A stretch of DNA of 64,000 nt, taken from a virus. Location: IMG/VR virus record IMGVR_UViG_3300042453_001086, positions 125,883 through 189,882 of that record. One strand, given 5' to 3'. Positions 1,979-23,385 of this stretch are shown here, in pieces. The notes under the pieces were generated by a model that was not told where the DNA came from, did no database searches, and saw only the letters and a list, made by a program, of their open reading frames with translations. A program made the position numbers and the translations under genes. The first letter of the stretch is position 1, and each line of letters begins with the position of its first letter.

Positions 1979-2173
1979 TCAGTTGCACCAGGCGGCAAGG
2001 TGTGCCACTTCGCCAGCCGTCTCCTCTAAGGTCGCCTCGGTCAGACCAGCCAGGCAGGCTTCCAGATCATCGGGGTCGATGCGGTCGATGTCACCATTGA
2101 TCTCCCATGCCTGTGCCTCAGCGAGGGCGAGGCAGCGATCACGAAGCGAGAGGGTGAAGGTTTTGTTTTTCAT
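1979..2173 (-). CDS. hypothetical early protein (probably leaderless)
   Basis: ATG lies 6 nt after the TAGACT -10. Confidence 0.75.
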   Translation of the reverse strand: MKNKTFTLSLRDRCLALAEAQAWEINGDIDRIDPDDLEACLAGLTEATLEETAGEVAHLAAWCN

Positions 2174-2182
2174 GCTGTTAGT

Positions 2183-2407
2183 CTACAGGCAGACGGTCTC
2201 GTGGCGCTGCAGGCAGTGACAGTTCACCCACTGTCCCAGCGAGCGGTCGCTGTTCCACATCAGCGACAGGATGGCACGACGGGACGCCTTGAGGCGATAG
2301 CGCACCCCATAGTAGCGTTGGAAGGTCACCCGAACAGTGCCCGTGATAGGATTGACGCTCATCTCATCGATAGCGGTGCTGCCGAAGGTGTTGATGGGGT
2401 AGCGCAT
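2183..2407 (-). CDS. KTSC-like domain protein
   Basis: STAIDEMSV..VRVTF..Y....SLGQWVN pattern resembles KTSC. Confidence 0.45.
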   Translation of the reverse strand: MRYPINTFGSTAIDEMSVNPITGTVRVTFQRYYGVRYRLKASRRAILSLMWNSDRSLGQWVNCHCLQRHETVCL

Positions 2408-2488
2408 TGCTTGTCTGTGGTTGATGCTGTTAGTCTACAGGGTCGGGATGGGGGATCGGGGGCAGCGTGTGCCACCCCCTCAACTGTC

Positions 2489-2917
2489 CTAGTAGTCGCT
2501 GAAGATGTAGACGTTACGGTAACCCTTCTCACAGGCAGTGAAATCGTAACGCAGGGAAGAATCGTAAGTTGCCTCCCAATCTACAACCAAAGCAGAGGGC
2601 ACATCGTACAGTTCATCATAATACTGCTCAGCGAAGTCTGCAGTCGAATCGTAGTTGCCACGGTAGCGTTCTTCGCAACCCTCAACATAGCAAACGTCGC
2701 CCATCTCTTCGATCAGGGCATCAACGGCATCGTAACCGATTGCCTCACCAGCGGTGCAATAGTCTTCATAATGTGCAACGAAATCGCTCTCGTTGTGGTT
2801 GTCGATGAACTCCAGCATGTCATCCAGAGCATAGTTCTCATCGAGCAATTCGTCGATCTTCTCAACAGTAGCAGCAGCGAGAACTTCTTTGTAGTTGGCA
2901 GTCAAGGTGACGGACAT
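2489..2917 (-). CDS. ardA: ArdA-like antirestriction (DNA-mimic) protein
   Basis: Highly acidic 142 aa; RYRGNYDSTADFAEQYYDELYDVPSALVVDWEATY matches the ArdA C-terminal pattern (YxGxYDSxxDFA..E..xxP..IDWE). Confidence 0.7.
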   Translation of the reverse strand: MSVTLTANYKEVLAAATVEKIDELLDENYALDDMLEFIDNHNESDFVAHYEDYCTAGEAIGYDAVDALIEEMGDVCYVEGCEERYRGNYDSTADFAEQYYDELYDVPSALVVDWEATYDSSLRYDFTACEKGYRNVYIFSDY

Positions 2918-2996
2918 TTGCTTTGTTTGGTTGATGGAATCAGTCTACAGGGTCAGGGTGGGGTCTGTGGCGACCCCTGTGCCACTTGTCAGAGTG

Positions 2997-3161
2997 TCAC
3001 ATGCCGTTCATGAAATCGGCAAGGGCTTCGAGATACTGGGCTTTGGTCTCAAAGGTCCGACCGTAGATAGTACGGGGGTACTCTGCCTCAGGGGCGGGAG
3101 CGTTGCTGGGCTCCTTGCCCTGGGAGAGGATCTGTTGCACGTAGGGGTTGTTTTTGTTCAT
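2997..3161 (-). CDS. hypothetical early protein (probably leaderless)
   Basis: Hand-translated 54 aa MNKNNPYVQQILSQGKEPSNAPAPEAEYPRTIYGRTFETKAQYLEALADFMNGM; ATG 6 nt after TAGACT. Confidence 0.75.
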   Translation of the reverse strand: MNKNNPYVQQILSQGKEPSNAPAPEAEYPRTIYGRTFETKAQYLEALADFMNGM

Positions 3162-3223
3162 GCTGTTAGTCTACAGGGTCAGGGGTCAGGGTGCGAGGCG
3201 GTGTGTGCCACCTTGCCAACTGG

Positions 3224-3460
3224 TCAGGGCAGCATCGCCAGACGCTCAGCGAGTCGCGCCTTCGCTTGGATCTCCTCAAGTGCAGGGATCTGTTCAATCC
3301 AGCGCATCTCACACTTAGAGTAATCGTAACCCTGAGATTCCAATTCTTTCATGTATGCCACAGCAGCGGAGTGATAATCGAACAGGCGCAGGGAATCGAA
3401 ATCCTCACCTTCATAATCCCATCCGCCGATGACAGCGTAGGCGCGGGGAGTGTCGGTCAT
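3224..3460 (-). CDS. hypothetical early protein
   Basis: 78-aa ORF behind a promoter repeat. Confidence 0.75.
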   Translation of the reverse strand: MTDTPRAYAVIGGWDYEGEDFDSLRLFDYHSAAVAYMKELESQGYDYSKCEMRWIEQIPALEEIQAKARLAERLAMLP

Positions 3461-3527
3461 GTCGTTTCGTTTGAACTGAGATCAGTATAGGGTGGAGAGG
3501 GGGCCGCGGCGACCCCCAGTGGACAGT

Positions 3528-3716
3528 TCAGAGATTGCCCATCAGAGCGGATGCTACGATCTCGCCAGCACCTGCCAGGTCATCCCGAACGATCAGGCGG
3601 AGCATCTCAGCACCCTCGGTGGACTGGTGGAGCATACGGACGTGCCCATCAGCAGCGTTTGGGCAGTTGCCGTGAACGATGGCGATAGCGAGGGCGGTTG
3701 CTTCGGTCTTGGTCAT
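3528..3716 (-). CDS. hypothetical early protein
   Basis: 62-aa ORF behind a promoter repeat. Confidence 0.7.
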   Translation of the reverse strand: MTKTEATALAIAIVHGNCPNAADGHVRMLHQSTEGAEMLRLIVRDDLAGAGEIVASALMGNL

Positions 3717-3805
3717 GTGGTTGTCTGAACTGAGATCAGTCTACAGGCAGGGGGTGGCCGCGGCGGGTGCTAGTGTGCCACCTTGGGTACTGGCCGCGGC
3801 CACCT

Positions 3806-3841
3806 AGACAAACGCCCCCTAGGCGATTAACCTAGAGGGCG
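3806..3841 (-). terminator. intrinsic terminator
   Basis: Minus strand CGCCCTCTAGG-TTAATCG-CCTAGGGGGCG followed by TTTGTCT. Confidence 0.65.
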
Positions 3842-3912
3842 GGAGGGGAGGGAAGCACAGGCAGACAGCGAGTAGTATGGGTGAACTACTCGCGGCCGCC
3901 GAGTTTGTGTTA

Positions 3913-4449
3913 CTAACCCTCGATGATGTTAGTGATAGTTTCGATCATAATGTCGCTCATCTCGTCAACACTGAAACCGTCAACTTTACAATGCAGGTTG
4001 TTAACGCCCACCTGAACTTCACCCATCACACCAAACAGTCCCTGGTGTGCAATGTGCAAGATACGATGAATCGGATTGCCAGCAGTTACACCAGTGCCAG
4101 ATGCAAACGTAACGTAAGTTGCAGTGGGATTGATAGCACGAACGATGAAATTGTTTTTGTACCAGCGTTCGATTGCGTTGCCTTTATCGTTTTGTTTCTT
4201 ACTCTCAAAGCAGGCAATCAGTTCACCTTTGTAGAACCAAACCCCACCATCAGGGGCACACGATCCGATGCCACCAGGGATCTGAGATTGATCGAGTTTG
4301 GATTGTACAATCAGATCAGGATAGGTGCTGCTGAGAATGTTTGCCACATGAAACATTGCCGATTTGGCGTTATCATCCATCGCCTTAGACTGCTCATCAA
4401 ATGCAGTCGTGCCAGGTTGAATGCCGCCTTTGAATGTAGTGTGGTGCAT
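3913..4449 (-). CDS. EcoRI-fold type II restriction endonuclease
   Basis: 178 aa from MHHTTF (start chosen because a promoter sits at 4472-4500); PDGG...ESKKQ...GNAIERWYKN parallels EcoRI PDGG...EAKHQG...GNAIERSHKN. Confidence 0.8.
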   Translation of the reverse strand: MHHTTFKGGIQPGTTAFDEQSKAMDDNAKSAMFHVANILSSTYPDLIVQSKLDQSQIPGGIGSCAPDGGVWFYKGELIACFESKKQNDKGNAIERWYKNNFIVRAINPTATYVTFASGTGVTAGNPIHRILHIAHQGLFGVMGEVQVGVNNLHCKVDGFSVDEMSDIMIETITNIIEG

Positions 4450-4518
4450 GTGATTTGTTTGATCTGAGAGTAATGTATCAGGGGTGGGGGAGCATTGCAA
4501 CCCCCCTTGTGCCACTTC

Positions 4519-4704
4519 CTAAACTGTCACATCCTCCAGCAGTTCAGGATAGTATTGTGCTACCTCTTCATTTAGCTCTTCATCATTATACTTATCGTAT
4601 CCCTCCATGAGATAATCGTAGCACAAACATGTCATGGTCTTAAGATCCATGTCATCCAACATTTGCTGGACAAGTTGATCCTGAAGAGTTTTGCGATCCA
4701 TCAT
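4519..4704 (-). CDS. acidic hypothetical protein
   Basis: 61-aa ORF tiling the operon. Confidence 0.7.
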   Translation of the reverse strand: MMDRKTLQDQLVQQMLDDMDLKTMTCLCYDYLMEGYDKYNDEELNEEVAQYYPELLEDVTV

Positions 4705-4829
4705 TTGCGAAGGGGAGAGTTGTAGTAGGAACGAAACACCGAAATCACAATGATAGCGGTGGAGATGACACCAACCAAACCGAGGTAGGTTACAGCGTCA
4801 CCAGTGAAAGTGTAGGAATCAGGCATCAT
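4701..4829 (-). CDS. small single-pass membrane protein
   Basis: Hand-translated 42 aa MMPDSYTFTGDAVTYLGLVGVISTAIIVISVFRSYYNSPLRK; overlaps both neighbours. Confidence 0.65.
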   Translation of the reverse strand: MMPDSYTFTGDAVTYLGLVGVISTAIIVISVFRSYYNSPLRK

Positions 4830-4962
4830 CACGCATCTCAGTTAGGATTTCATGTAGCAGTTCAACATCGGTGCCCATCAGTTCACTCACCTCATCCCAA
4901 TCATCATGGAACTCGATGAGAGAAATCAGACAATCAATTTGCTCGAAAGTGAGAGTTTGCAT
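4819..4962 (-). CDS. acidic hypothetical protein
   Basis: 47 aa from MQTLTFEQ. Confidence 0.65.
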   Translation of the reverse strand: MQTLTFEQIDCLISLIEFHDDWDEVSELMGTDVELLHEILTEMRDDA

Positions 4963-4969
4963 GTCAGAT

Positions 4970-5131
4970 TCAGGCAGCGACGACATCAGCAGGGGTGAGA
5001 TCAATGTATGCTTCAACGCCAGCAATGTGCATAGATTGAACCATAATCCATGCCAGATTCTCGGGCACTTGAATCATACGCTCTTTACCATCTTTGGCGT
5101 CAGTGTAATACAAATCGCGGGTGTCAGTCAT
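4970..5131 (-). CDS. hypothetical early protein
   Basis: 53 aa from MTDTRDL, behind a promoter repeat. Confidence 0.7.
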   Translation of the reverse strand: MTDTRDLYYTDAKDGKERMIQVPENLAWIMVQSMHIAGVEAYIDLTPADVVAA

Positions 5132-5444
5132 TTGCTTTGTTTGTTTGACTCTGTTAGTATTGCACCAAATCAGGGGCAATGGGAGAACACTGTGCCAGTT
5201 CTCAAAGTGGCACAGGGTCACTTGACATCGATATCAGAATGCGATAGCTTCAAGGGTAGGTACATTCTGATCAAGAATCGGCATGTAGTTAGTGTCACTT
5301 TCGACCACAACATCGTCGGTCAAAGTGTCAAGAACTGCCAGCAGTTCGCTACCATTAGCGGCACGATTGAGCAGGGAAAGCATCACAGTTTTGGTCATGA
5401 TTAGAGTGTGGTAGGGTATACTTAGGAGTTAGTATTGAATATGA

Positions 5445-6133: not shown

Positions 6134-6304
6134 TCAGACGGTGGCAGGTGCCAAAGAAACTTCAATACGTCTCAGGTTCAGCCCAGCCAGTTGCGAGTTT
6201 ACACGCTTGCTGATAAACTCAGTCGGTTCTTTGAGGCGAGAGACTTCATACCAGATAGTACGGCAACCGTCCCAAGTCTCAACCTGAATCCGAACAGTTT
6301 TCAT
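6134..6304 (-). CDS. hypothetical protein
   Basis: 56 aa from MKTVRIQ, start fixed by the promoter at 6328-6356. Confidence 0.7.
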   Translation of the reverse strand: MKTVRIQVETWDGCRTIWYEVSRLKEPTEFISKRVNSQLAGLNLRRIEVSLAPATV

Positions 6305-6327
6305 GGGGAATTCCCGACGACTCATGT

Positions 6328-6356
6328 AGTATGGATCAGATCGGGGCAAAAGTCAA
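6328..6356 (-). promoter_or_regulatory. sigma70 promoter
   Basis: TTGACT-17-CATACT. Confidence 0.8.
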
Positions 6357-9163: not shown

Positions 9164-9382
9164 TCATGTAAACTCCGCAATGTAATAATCAACCGTGACT
9201 TCATTCTCTGCAGCAAGACGCTCAAGGTCTTCTACATAATAGTCAATCAGTTCCTTTTCACGATACTCATCAATGTCGAGCAGAATGTCATCCATGTTAT
9301 CGTTTTGCATAGCGGCAATCGGGGTGAGGTTGAGGAAGTTCAGCACATGCTTTATCATATGCTTTAAAGAGTTCATGATCAC
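9164..9382 (-). CDS. acidic hypothetical protein
   Basis: Acidic C-terminus ending EVTVDYYIAEFT. Confidence 0.6.
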   Translation of the reverse strand: MIMNSLKHMIKHVLNFLNLTPIAAMQNDNMDDILLDIDEYREKELIDYYVEDLERLAAENEVTVDYYIAEFT

Positions 9383-10188: not shown

Positions 10189-11439
10189 TCATGCAATAAT
10201 GCTCGTGGGGGGCACACCCTTCACAAAGATAGCATCAACAACGTTCTGCAGGCGTTTCTGAATCTGTGCGCCATAGTTACCGTAGATAGGCACAGTCACG
10301 AAACCAAACGGTTTGCGATAGTTACCGATGTCACCAGCAGTGAGTTTGCCTTCCGCAATGTCACGCGCATCATCCACATTCATGCGGATTACACGACCAA
10401 TGGTTTGTGCCATCTCCACAATGTTGAGGTTACGAAGCAGGACACAATGCGTCAGACCAGGAACATTGATACCCTCAGACAGAATGCTGTAGTGAAACAC
10501 CACAAACTTACGCGCAGGATCTTTACCCCATGCGGTGAGAGTATCAAAGAATACCTCACGGTTGACCTTCTGTTTGTTGACATAGGCACCGTGCTTAGCA
10601 GTAATGTGCAGCACATCATATCCACGCTCAGACAGTTCCTGAAGCATGGAAGTAGCAGCAACCATATTCCAAATGATTTTGCTGCTGGGTGCTGCTACCA
10701 GCACTTTCTGACCAGACTCAGCATCAAGATTGTCTACAATCTCCAGCACAGTGTTAGCGTCACAGTCAGCAGCGTTAGACTTGGTGCGAGCAACTGCGGG
10801 CTGTTCGTGAATCTGAATCGAAGGAGGAATGATACTACCAGACTCAATCAGTTCCTGTGCAGGAGTGATCTCAATCACATCACCAAACACCAGTTTGTTA
10901 TTCATGCCACGCCCCTTGGGATTCTTGGAGTGACGAGGAGTTGCAGTAAAGAAATAGCAGTTGTTTGCCATCTCAGATACCATAGCAGTCTTAGGAAAGA
11001 ACTGCTTGCTGGTAGCATTATGTGCCTCATCGAAGTAAGCTACATCGATGTCAATACCAGCATCAACAATACGATGCAGAGAATGATAGGTGGTGAAGAT
11101 AAAGCAGGACTCACCAGCAGCACGAGCGGTGTTGTTGAACAGCGCAATCGTATCAGATTTGGTGGTGCTGAAGTGATGAGTTTCACCACTGTGAACGTGC
11201 ATGATGTGAACGTTCTTGGTATCAATAATCTGCAGATATTCGTCACTCAGTTGGTTGCACAAAAGCAACCTAGGTGCTACCACAACAGCAGTCAAACCAC
11301 GCTCAGAGGCATTCAGAAGACCCAGCAGGTGCAGGATTTGCTCAAGAGTCTTGCCAGCACCCGTAGGTTGAATCACAATGCCCTTACAGGCGTTCTGCAT
11401 GGCAGCGATGGTACGCGGTTGGTGGGAGCGAAGTTTCAT
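10189..11439 (-). CDS. superfamily II DEAH helicase (ResIII-like)
   Basis: QPTGAGKT, FDEAH, FTAT, LSEGINVPGL, QTIGRVIR; start MKLRSHQ fixed by the promoter at 11462-11490. Confidence 0.9.
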   Translation of the reverse strand: MKLRSHQPRTIAAMQNACKGIVIQPTGAGKTLEQILHLLGLLNASERGLTAVVVAPRLLLCNQLSDEYLQIIDTKNVHIMHVHSGETHHFSTTKSDTIALFNNTARAAGESCFIFTTYHSLHRIVDAGIDIDVAYFDEAHNATSKQFFPKTAMVSEMANNCYFFTATPRHSKNPKGRGMNNKLVFGDVIEITPAQELIESGSIIPPSIQIHEQPAVARTKSNAADCDANTVLEIVDNLDAESGQKVLVAAPSSKIIWNMVAATSMLQELSERGYDVLHITAKHGAYVNKQKVNREVFFDTLTAWGKDPARKFVVFHYSILSEGINVPGLTHCVLLRNLNIVEMAQTIGRVIRMNVDDARDIAEGKLTAGDIGNYRKPFGFVTVPIYGNYGAQIQKRLQNVVDAIFVKGVPPTSIIA

Positions 11440-11520: not shown

Positions 11521-12576
11521 TCATTTCATAAGAATAAACTCACCTTCTTGCACACCTTCTTGGTGATGATCTTGTGCAAGGAAAGCATGTTGACACTTAG
11601 GATTTTTCCAAGGATAGCAACCATTAGTAACCTTGTAGATAAACACTTTATCAAGTGCAGCCTCAAGATTAGCAAGTGCTACGGTGTGAACTTTCTCGCG
11701 TTTGACATCAAGAGATTCAATACGAGAGGGGAGAGCAACAGATGCTTGAATGTTCATGTAAGAATCGAGAGGAGTTTTTGCTGCCTCAGTAATCAACGGA
11801 TTAGTACGAGAACCCCAGTTATCCATGTTGATGTAGTAGTTACGCACATCAGGATTGTTGAGTACGTTCTTCACATACTTATCAGTAGAGCGATTTACAA
11901 ACTCTTCATACGTTTTCTCATTATGTGCAGTAAAGCGTTCCAGTTTCACAGTGGTATTACCACTAGTGTGAATGAAACTAATCATTTCTTTCACTAAACG
12001 ACCCTGAACAGTCTTGCTGAGAGAGTTGTTAGCAATCAGACGAATCTCGTCTTCGATTTGCTGCTGGCAGGTGATTTCACCAGCGGAAACACCAAACTTG
12101 ATGTGCTCAATCACTTCATCTTCGTTGTTAAGAGTAGCGTGAAACACACGCTCATTATTCAATGCTTTAGCAAAACGTTTGCGAGCCCATTCGTTTTCAC
12201 AACGAACAAAAACAAACATATAACCAGAGATGCCAAGATAAGAACAAGCATCGTGGCGGTGTCCACCAGTAATGATGTCACCAGTATCAATATCAATATA
12301 AACAGGCGGTTGAGTGCAGTCAATACCGTTTTGTTCGATATCTTCTTTAATCAAACGCACTTTCTCGTGGTCGGTGCCAAGATAACGACCAATGTTGTTT
12401 TGTTTTACAACATCCTTCCAGAGACCAAACTTTTTCTCGATAATCTCAATACCAGGAATACCCTTGTCAGTTACAGGGAATGTCCAGTTTGCAGGATCCA
12501 TCAACTTTTCATCAAAGTATTGACAAACATATTGCAGTGCATCATGAATGTCTTGAATGTCAAAGATTGTTGCCAT
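11521..12576 (-). CDS. ParB/Srx-like N-terminal domain protein
   Basis: IKEDIEQNGI..PPVYID..IITGGHRHDA motif. Confidence 0.65.
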   Translation of the reverse strand: MATIFDIQDIHDALQYVCQYFDEKLMDPANWTFPVTDKGIPGIEIIEKKFGLWKDVVKQNNIGRYLGTDHEKVRLIKEDIEQNGIDCTQPPVYIDIDTGDIITGGHRHDACSYLGISGYMFVFVRCENEWARKRFAKALNNERVFHATLNNEDEVIEHIKFGVSAGEITCQQQIEDEIRLIANNSLSKTVQGRLVKEMISFIHTSGNTTVKLERFTAHNEKTYEEFVNRSTDKYVKNVLNNPDVRNYYINMDNWGSRTNPLITEAAKTPLDSYMNIQASVALPSRIESLDVKREKVHTVALANLEAALDKVFIYKVTNGCYPWKNPKCQHAFLAQDHHQEGVQEGEFILMK

Positions 12577-22530: not shown

Positions 22531-23385
22531 TTAGGAATACAACAAAATCTCGGTAGCGGGTTTAGCAGCGTATCCAGTACTGGTTTTCTTACGACGACCA
22601 GCAGTATATGTCACAGGAAATCTAGTAATGTTTAGGTCACCTTTCCTATCATCAAAAAATGTAGATCCATCACAACGGTTGCATAGAAGAACATGACCAT
22701 CAATGCTTTTGGCATGTTCTATCAGTTCTTCAGTCTCTGTATCACCCCAGCTCGTACCATACTTAGTAAAACTATCACGATATGGTGGGTCAAAATAGTT
22801 TAAATCTCCAGTGGGGCAGTCTTTGTAATCACCACAATAGATCTCTACATTTTGCAACAACTCATGCCAAGCATATACCATTGCTTTATCATAGACTACA
22901 TCTTTTTGATTCAATAGTCCTGCAGGAGTACCATATCTACCGTTAGTATTTTTATTGATCTGCCAGATGCCATTGAAACCTGTTTTCATCAGGAAATACA
23001 GTACTCCCGCTTCAAACTCTTTAGACCAAAACTTGTAATCATATGCATGAGTTTGACGAACTTCAAAAAAGTATTTCTTTCTATCTTCTTTAGACATAGG
23101 AATATACTTGCTCTGAAAAACATCTACAACATTGCAAAACTCATCTGGAGATTGTTTTACCGTTCGGTAAATATTTACAACACTTTCGTTGATATCATTG
23201 ATATATGCCCGTTCGGGATTATACTTCTGCATAACGTGCAGAAACATAGCACCACCACCAAAGAACGGTTCAGAATAACTGTTGACCGTTGATGGTAAAT
23301 GTGGTGCATGGTATTTGAGCATTTTGGTTTTGCCACCTGCCCATATGAAAAGTGGTTTTAGTTTAGGCATCTTGACTGTCGCCAT
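22531..23385 (-). CDS. Dam-family (D12 class) N6-adenine DNA methyltransferase with divergent target-recognition residues
   Basis: WAGGK, EPFFGGG, NDIN, GFNGIWQIN, DPPY; promoter TTGACA-18-TATCAT at 23396-23425. Confidence 0.92.
   Translation of the reverse strand: MATVKMPKLKPLFIWAGGKTKMLKYHAPHLPSTVNSYSEPFFGGGAMFLHVMQKYNPERAYINDINESVVNIYRTVKQSPDEFCNVVDVFQSKYIPMSKEDRKKYFFEVRQTHAYDYKFWSKEFEAGVLYFLMKTGFNGIWQINKNTNGRYGTPAGLLNQKDVVYDKAMVYAWHELLQNVEIYCGDYKDCPTGDLNYFDPPYRDSFTKYGTSWGDTETEELIEHAKSIDGHVLLCNRCDGSTFFDDRKGDLNITRFPVTYTAGRRKKTSTGYAAKPATEILLYS

Follow-up and report, generated by a model that had tools for sequence, protein, structure and literature searches.

The nuclease locus and its setting

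The window analysed here is the terminal 64 kb of a virus record 189,882 bp long. By sequence likeness the source virus is placed among the T4-like, Kyanoviridae-like cyanophages, because it encodes a gp32-like protein (60-70% identical to counterparts in Synechococcus myoviruses) and an array of small promoter-led genes. The features discussed below are the following.

1-64000, no strand: loss of AATT, 45 sites versus 370 expected in the window (O/E 0.12)
3813-3841, minus strand: strong intrinsic terminator-like hairpin with a 12-bp stem, past the nuclease gene
3913-4449, minus strand: predicted 178-aa minimal EcoRI-fold, Type IIP-like restriction endonuclease (PHROG 2400, function unknown)
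4472-4514, minus strand: sigma70-type promoter, TTGCAA-17-TACATT, with TG before the -10 and an upstream TGGCAC, read directly from the sequence
10189-11439, minus strand: SF2 helicase, a context marker because an exchangeable restriction-modification (R-M) pair lies directly beside it in related phages
22531-23385, minus strand: 284-aa D12-class N6-adenine methyltransferase (PF02086, TIGR00571), the predicted cognate AATT methylase

The nuclease gene translates into 178 residues plus a stop codon and carries PDGG (residues 66-69), ESKKQ (82-86) and GNAIERWYKN (90-99) in the EcoRI order, as a preliminary description of this DNA had reported. We place its start at the ATG at 4449, because a start at the upstream in-frame GTG at 4515 would put the promoter inside the reading frame, and because close homologues have 176-183 residues. 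A 196-aa open reading frame on the plus strand of the locus was rejected.

The preliminary description had also assigned the gene its own promoter, and all of its parts can be read from the letters: TGGCAC at 4514-4509 (the reverse complement of the GTGCCA element), TTGCAA at 4500-4495, a 17-nt spacer and TACATT at 4477-4472. TGGCAC lies 31 nt above the -10 and is common to the neighbouring small-gene cassettes. The promoter scores 8 of 12, which is below the threshold of the promoter scanner. The pattern of element plus -10 occurs nine times in the window, always on the minus strand and seven times within 2007-4514; genome-wide it occurs 12 times versus 3.2 in shuffles. Similar architecture precedes the nuclease homologues of S-BM1, S-RIM2 and the metagenomic loci L002, L005 and L012. 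The hairpin at 3841-3813 on the minus strand makes the gene a one-gene unit. Early expression is inferred from general knowledge and the clustering of the motif; its timing was not observed. Contigs of one metatranscriptome, whose share of words was small, did not cover the gene, a result that counts neither for nor against.

Small genes at 6134-6349, in the 9164-9382 region and at 2000-5200 each have their own promoter, most with a CCCTGTAGACT extended -10 and TGGCAC 30-31 nt upstream. The same array includes an ArdA-like antirestriction protein (2489-2917, minus strand), 1 kb from the nuclease, whose match to PF07275 (E 5e-5) falls just under the cut-off.

Predicted structure and relatives of the nuclease

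The structure model of the nuclease has a pLDDT of 88.5, and its best five Foldseek matches are all EcoRI (E 1e-6 to 2e-5). A comparison with EcoRI and MunI had been proposed to check the claimed EcoRI fold. In a VIA comparison EcoRI gave a strong match (Z 14.3, rmsd 2.4 Å over 151 residues), with the second-best entry at Z 9.8, whereas MunI was far weaker (Z 7.8). A 96-sequence profile of the nuclease family also reaches EcoRI (E 2.6e-12), and the fold assignment holds up.

The profile alignment matches PDGG, EAKxQ and GNAIER to EcoRI residue for residue; the nuclease lacks the 21-residue inner arm of EcoRI (residues 117-137) as well as a stretch of some 15 residues ahead of PDGG. D67, E82, K84, Q86, G90, N91, A92, E94 and R95 are invariant in 69 of 69 homologues and at least 90% retained in the 96 distant ones. 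In EcoRI, D91, E111 and K113 are catalytic and GNAIER reads the inner bases. By this correspondence we predict, without an enzyme assay, that D67, E82 and K84 are the catalytic residues and G90-R95 the reading motif. The core fold, the PD...ExK residues and the GNAIER motif all agree with membership of the EcoRI-like PD-(D/E)xK group.

A homodimer model scored 0.77 against 0.00 for the best control, with contact agreement of at least 88%, pLDDT of at least 82 and a predicted interface formed by helices 94-105 and 126-136. Of 30 solved homodimers 20 reached the mark applied, as did 1 of 23 single chains; the model may pass it through likeness to solved EcoRI.

EcoRI was reached by profiles and the fold search alone. 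With the single nuclease sequence as query, Pfam, PDB, NCBIfam and PADLOC returned nothing useful, and neither the PADLOC Type II REase models nor a plasmid search gave a match. Under strict settings the Pfam EcoRI family PF02963 does not match the nuclease (P0002); it matches 6 of 96 relatives, the best at E 1.6e-4 and 21.3 bits, under the cut-off of 22.

The nuclease has 215 near relatives, and the family forms 325 clusters at 50% identity. The gene occurs in 65 cultured records, compared with 474 that have a close gp32, and is therefore dispensable. A GTDB scan with the nuclease profile found none, yet it missed a true homologue on an Aquirufa MAG contig, so absence from bacteria is not shown. 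That 2.9-kb contig (L256), found by the methylase scan, carries a nuclease and methylase pair followed by phage-like genes, and may be a phage fragment placed in a bacterial bin.

A probable partner methylase 18 kb away

As had been noted, no methylase gene adjoins the nuclease; the partner lies 18 kb away, at 22531-23385. The protein encoded there matches PF02086 and TIGR00571 above cut-off and contains the FxGxG and DPPY motifs. At the position of the Dam/DpnM arginine it has Gln142, which is invariant in 21 family members. A GATC-specific Dam requires an arginine for the outer G:C pair, a part played by R124 in EcoDam, and the window protein does not have it. The 'K9' position, where I, M, T and K all occur, is weaker evidence on specificity because the residue varies. 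No early-type element was found upstream of the gene. It is one of two D12 methylase genes in the study genome, the other being at genome 40543-41433 (27% identical).

The preliminary description had linked the nuclease to this methylase, and the relatives bear the link out: a homologue of the methylase, mostly 42-67% identical, accompanies the nuclease at 65 of 80 viral loci, usually tens of bases to 1.5 kb downstream. The two genes overlap by 4 bp in S-BM1 and are separated by a single 351-aa gene in S-RIM2. Among cultured phages, a close methylase (55-56%) occurs only in these two, both nuclease carriers; no close homologue from cyanobacteria was found among the best 80 GTDB matches. The term 'orphan' therefore does not suit the nuclease, whose partner family is present in the study genome and usually adjacent in relatives. 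Of the features that define a Type IIP system, the study genome has both a nuclease and, as a separate protein, its cognate methylase, with cognacy taken from the gene neighbourhood of relatives; it does not have the two genes side by side. For Mg-dependent double-strand cleavage of a palindrome, blocked by cognate methylation, the only pointer is the indirect one that AATT is scarce where the gene is present.

The trees of the two proteins disagree: the study nuclease groups with L002-L010 and the study methylase with L025, and alternative groupings were rejected by AU tests (p about 1e-6 and lower), although the groups were named only after the trees had been inspected. Because of this disagreement, two cassettes that shared one specificity may each have contributed a gene, as opposed to a single cassette having been split; this is an inference from phylogeny. 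The 'split' system of the earlier description may be a re-assorted one.

Beside the helicase, the window contains a 351-aa open reading frame (11521-12576, minus strand) without a Pfam match, 83% identical to an S-H9-1 gene in the same position. Genes of about this size lie near R-M pairs in S-RIM2, S-IOM18 and S-CAM22. The frame was rejected as a homologue of the S-RIM2 gene between nuclease and methylase, to which it has no tblastn match.

Depletion of AATT

The avoidance of AATT claimed for this DNA extends beyond the window. In the genome there are 186 sites versus 1156 expected (O/E 0.16), which makes AATT the most depleted tetramer by z-score (z -39), and the scarcity is even along the genome. 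Base composition was rejected as the cause, with TTAA at 0.94 and ATAT at 1.00. Aligned DNA also argues against it: the study genome has 1 private AATT versus 44 in the close relative L095 (gp32 93% identical), and 3 versus 33 in another relative.

The loss accompanies the nuclease gene. Across 82 nuclease loci the median AATT O/E is 0.40, as against 0.93 across 78 gp32 control loci (p 6e-26), a p value that overstates the case because the loci are related and come from different genome regions. Cultured phages, compared over whole genomes or large parts of them, remove the regional bias: S-RIM2 (0.31) and S-BM1 (0.25) stand against 0.72-1.01 in nine cultured cyanophages confirmed to be free of the nuclease.

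In the study genome, flanking bases (NAATTN) deepen the depletion of the tetramer in no case but a weak one, TAATTA. No flanking hexamer stands out, and a hexamer target for the nuclease was rejected. The 'AATT-core' target first proposed is thus retained as to AATT itself; it looks like the bare tetramer and not the core of a hexamer. The 'three independent signals' said to point to this word are not fully independent, since the loss of sites would follow from the R-M pair.

All seven long nuclease carriers with a methylase retain some AATT (O/E 0.13-0.64). In G001 the nuclease adjoins the helicase, and there are 0 AATT sites in 112 kb versus 340 expected; tblastn, profile and motif searches of these 112 kb, which include gp32 and the usual neighbourhood, found no methylase. 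G002 and G003 likewise have the nuclease, no detected methylase and no AATT in 57 and 74 kb (188 and 232 expected). The three are probably one lineage. Total loss of AATT is what an unprotected cutter demands; the absence of a methylase is unproven, because the records are 41-63% complete and the gene may lie in the missing part.

A weak counter-example is S-CREM2, which has an intact-looking nuclease homologue and, two genes away, a divergent (30%) methylase. Its AATT O/E of 0.64 resembles that of its other palindromes, the lowest being TATA (0.41; L178-L186). Some other nuclease loci are barely depleted (L059 0.86, L062 0.79, L065 0.95, L078 0.84). Such carriers may have gained the gene recently, have every site methylated, or have changed in specificity.

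A proposed exchangeable slot beside the helicase

The place beside the SF2 helicase that holds the AATT pair in S-RIM2 and S-BM1 is occupied in relatives by other pairs of a nuclease-like gene and a methylase:

L188:12243-13728 (S-RIM8)
L204
L227
L208:12881-14226 (S-CAM22)
L212:18248-19610 (Syn33)

S-RIM8, S-IOM18 and WH25-B have a D12 methylase and a 200-aa protein, annotated MutH in WH25-B; S-CAM22 has a 208-aa open reading frame and an N6/N4 methylase; and Syn33 has a gene annotated 'restriction endonuclease' and an N6/N4 methylase. These phages, which lack the AATT nuclease, are short of other words. GATC is depleted in S-RIM8 (O/E 0.15), WH25-B (0.17) and S-IOM18 (0.34), and ACGT in Syn33 (0.42) and S-CAM22 (0.54). 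Since MutH-family proteins act at GATC, a MutH-like protein in the slot fits the loss of GATC. The assignment of ACGT to the Syn33 and S-CAM22 pairs rests on co-occurrence only. Over 119 kb of aligned DNA the losses in S-RIM2 and S-RIM8 are reciprocal, with 96 versus 657 AATT and 398 versus 41 GATC.

CTAG is depleted in S-CAM3 (0.14; L228-L231) and TTAA in S-BM3 (0.13; L232-L235); nucleases behind these two depletions were not found. An N6/N4 methylase is present in S-BM3 at L234:5532-6284. S-H9-1 and DSL-LC03 have no depleted word of their own.

On balance, and without great assurance, we are inclined to see an exchangeable four-base 'cutter slot' in T4-like cyanophages, in which unrelated pairs replace one another. 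Every lineage would clear its own word from its DNA, and some would discard the methylase and clear the word entirely. The lytic phage would then be the main user of restriction, for breakdown of host DNA and for competition between phages, and a missing tetramer would predict a nuclease. The contents of the slot, to be read with the same reserve, would be EcoRI-like for AATT, MutH-like for GATC, and others matching ACGT and perhaps CTAG and TTAA.

Proposed role and alternative explanations

This phage probably encodes its own Type IIP R-M system for AATT, the most likely use of which is to fragment the host chromosome early. We are confident, by inference and in the absence of an enzyme assay, that the nuclease dimer makes double-strand cuts at unmethylated AATT, and we consider it very likely, although no methylome is available, that the enzyme at 22531-23385 methylates that site. 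As for the role, we lean, with some hesitation and by analogy with chloroviruses, towards early fragmentation of the unmethylated host chromosome, giving host shut-off and a supply of nucleotides. The nuclease would be made first, from its own promoter read by the host polymerase, and would cut unmethylated AATT soon after injection. Phage DNA would be spared, the virion DNA having been methylated in the previous host and new copies being hemimethylated; hemimethylated sites resist Type II cleavage, as is established for EcoRI. The methylase would be needed only during replication, so a separation of 18 kb would be tolerable. Loss of AATT would lower the cost of incomplete methylation, and any cutting of co-infecting phages that hold another cassette would come as a by-product or a second role. 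The host chromosome is the obvious substrate: cyanophages commonly degrade it, and host R-M is uncommon in marine picocyanobacteria (PMC6708340). On the other side stand the dispensability of the gene and the fact that other cyanophages combine host DNA breakdown with phage replication (PMC6708340).

The same enzyme could instead serve mainly in competition between phages, cutting mobile elements and other phages, whether co-infecting or superinfecting, with a different cassette, which would drive turnover of specificity at one slot. In its favour, close relatives on the same host, WH7803, hold different pairs beside the helicase, with matching depletion (AATT in S-RIM2 and S-BM1; GATC in S-RIM8, S-IOM18 and WH25-B), and host DNA breakdown alone needs no change of specificity. 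In addition, the Marseillevirus R-M system does not degrade host DNA (10.1101/2019.12.21.884833). However, the abundant unmethylated substrate in every infection is host DNA, turnover could equally track host methylation patterns, and the chlorovirus enzymes that have been tested cause no mutual exclusion (PMC7019647). We regard competition as the main job as possible but doubtful. It is unlikely that the pair is merely a selfish module that spreads by cutting unmethylated alleles in mixed infections, in a homing-like manner, with no benefit to the phage. Its patchy distribution, single exchangeable slot and incongruent nuclease and methylase trees would suit such a module; the nuclease, however, has moved away from the methylase and has its own promoter and terminator, and one lineage retains it, apparently without a methylase, with every AATT purged, which argues for selection on the nuclease itself. 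Our weighting of host breakdown, competition and selfish spread takes into account that Marseillevirus spares its host, that most cyanophages lack the gene and that specificity turnover fits competition.

Two further readings dispute the activity or the site of the nuclease. Restriction-site avoidance is a common phage trait, and CCGG, GGCC, AGCC/GGCT and AGCT are depleted independently of the nuclease gene, so that avoidance of AATT and the methylase could be a defence against host restriction at AATT, the EcoRI-like gene being a bystander, decayed or a binder that does not cut. This is very improbable given that S-RIM2, S-BM1, S-IOM18, Syn33, WH25-B and S-BM3 share WH7803 as a recorded host and only the carriers lose AATT, that the catalytic residues are invariant, and that cyanobacteria lack a close methylase homologue among the best 80 GTDB matches. 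It is also quite improbable that the nuclease reads some other site or a longer one (GAATTC, RAATTY), with AATT lost through the methylase alone. EcoRI does read GAATTC, and S-CREM2 has no specific loss of AATT, but the flanks (weak TAATTA aside) are not depleted beyond the tetramer, and the lineage without a detected methylase has no AATT in any context.

Comparison with known systems

EcoRI (Type IIP, GAATTC; PF02963; PDB 1ERI, 1CKQ, 2OXV) shares with the phage nuclease its fold, PD..ExK-Q active site, GNAIER motif and predicted dimer through two helices. The phage protein differs in size (178 versus 277 aa), in having about 20% identity and no inner arm, in its Dam-like D12 partner methylase, in its inferred 4-bp site and in its occurrence on phages. 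MunI (CAATTG; PDB 1D02) likewise has a short EcoRI-branch fold around an AATT core, but reads a hexamer and has no sequence-level match to the nuclease. The bacterial enzymes MluCI, Tsp509I and Sse9I cut the site predicted here, and Sse9I is an EcoRI-related nuclease paired with a D12-class methylase. T4 EndoII (DenA), a nuclease of a lytic phage, cuts the DNA of the host while modification shields that of the phage, and so resembles the proposed role; it differs in being a GIY-YIG nicking enzyme and in that protection comes from global hydroxymethylcytosine, not from a cognate site methylase.

The R-M systems of chloroviruses, like the phage pair, consist of a virus-encoded short-site nuclease plus methylase and are thought to degrade host DNA early; they differ in their eukaryotic host, in packaging the enzymes in the virion and in always having the two genes adjacent (PMC7019647). 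Within cyanophages, S-CREM2 gp11 (OR473000.1), with the GenBank note 'restriction endonuclease EcoRI', is a member of the nuclease family (45% identical), which the S-CREM2 paper does not discuss (PMC10665884). Syn33, S-RIM12 and ACG-2014a carry a 'restriction endonuclease' and a methylase, the Syn33 pair in the same helicase slot. For these genes and for gp11 there is annotation only, with no site, activity or avoidance reported.

Our literature search, which left out most subscription papers, turned up no publication that deals with an AATT system or with exchangeable cutter cassettes in cyanophages, and within the same scope no site-specific nuclease named for host DNA degradation in T4-like cyanophages. 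The identity of the enzyme and its AATT site are strongly supported by comparative genomics, and have not been assayed. The system works like a Type IIP system with an EcoRI-fold nuclease, yet stands outside the Pfam EcoRI family and has non-adjacent nuclease and methylase genes. The usual interpretation of phage methylases is protection from restriction by the host (PMC12801897); here, restriction-site avoidance gains a phage-driven explanation. The analysis also names a candidate host-DNA nuclease, its site and its methylase in cyanophages, testable in cultured phages on one host (WH7803). An EcoRI of 178 residues that recognizes no more than the four inner bases would also lend itself naturally to asking how the arms of EcoRI set specificity.

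Other methylases and depleted words

A second Dam-like methylase region (genome 40543-41942, minus strand; L379:544-1943) lies between two clamp-loader-like genes. The methylase gene is overlapped by a 170-aa open reading frame for which neither Pfam nor cultured phages gave a match. GATC has an O/E of 0.57 in the study genome. The methylase and the 170-aa frame are a possible second R-M pair.

CCGG is wholly absent from the study genome, G000 (0 versus 146 expected), and from 10 of 11 cultured cyanophages sampled, S-CREM2 being the exception; G013 has normal CCGG. GGCC, AGCC/GGCT and AGCT are also low in these genomes, whether or not the AATT nuclease is present. A search of G000 for the C5 methylase motif found none. 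By analogy with G001, the absence of CCGG could reflect a conserved unprotected CCGG cutter, or else a host system.

In L066-L079, CCGG is not depleted as it typically is in cyanophages, yet the AATT pair is present, with AATT at 0.23-0.56 in most; to judge by such sequences, the nuclease family reaches other phage groups. L047 is also short of TGCA (0.09), and G019 also loses GTAC (0.30).
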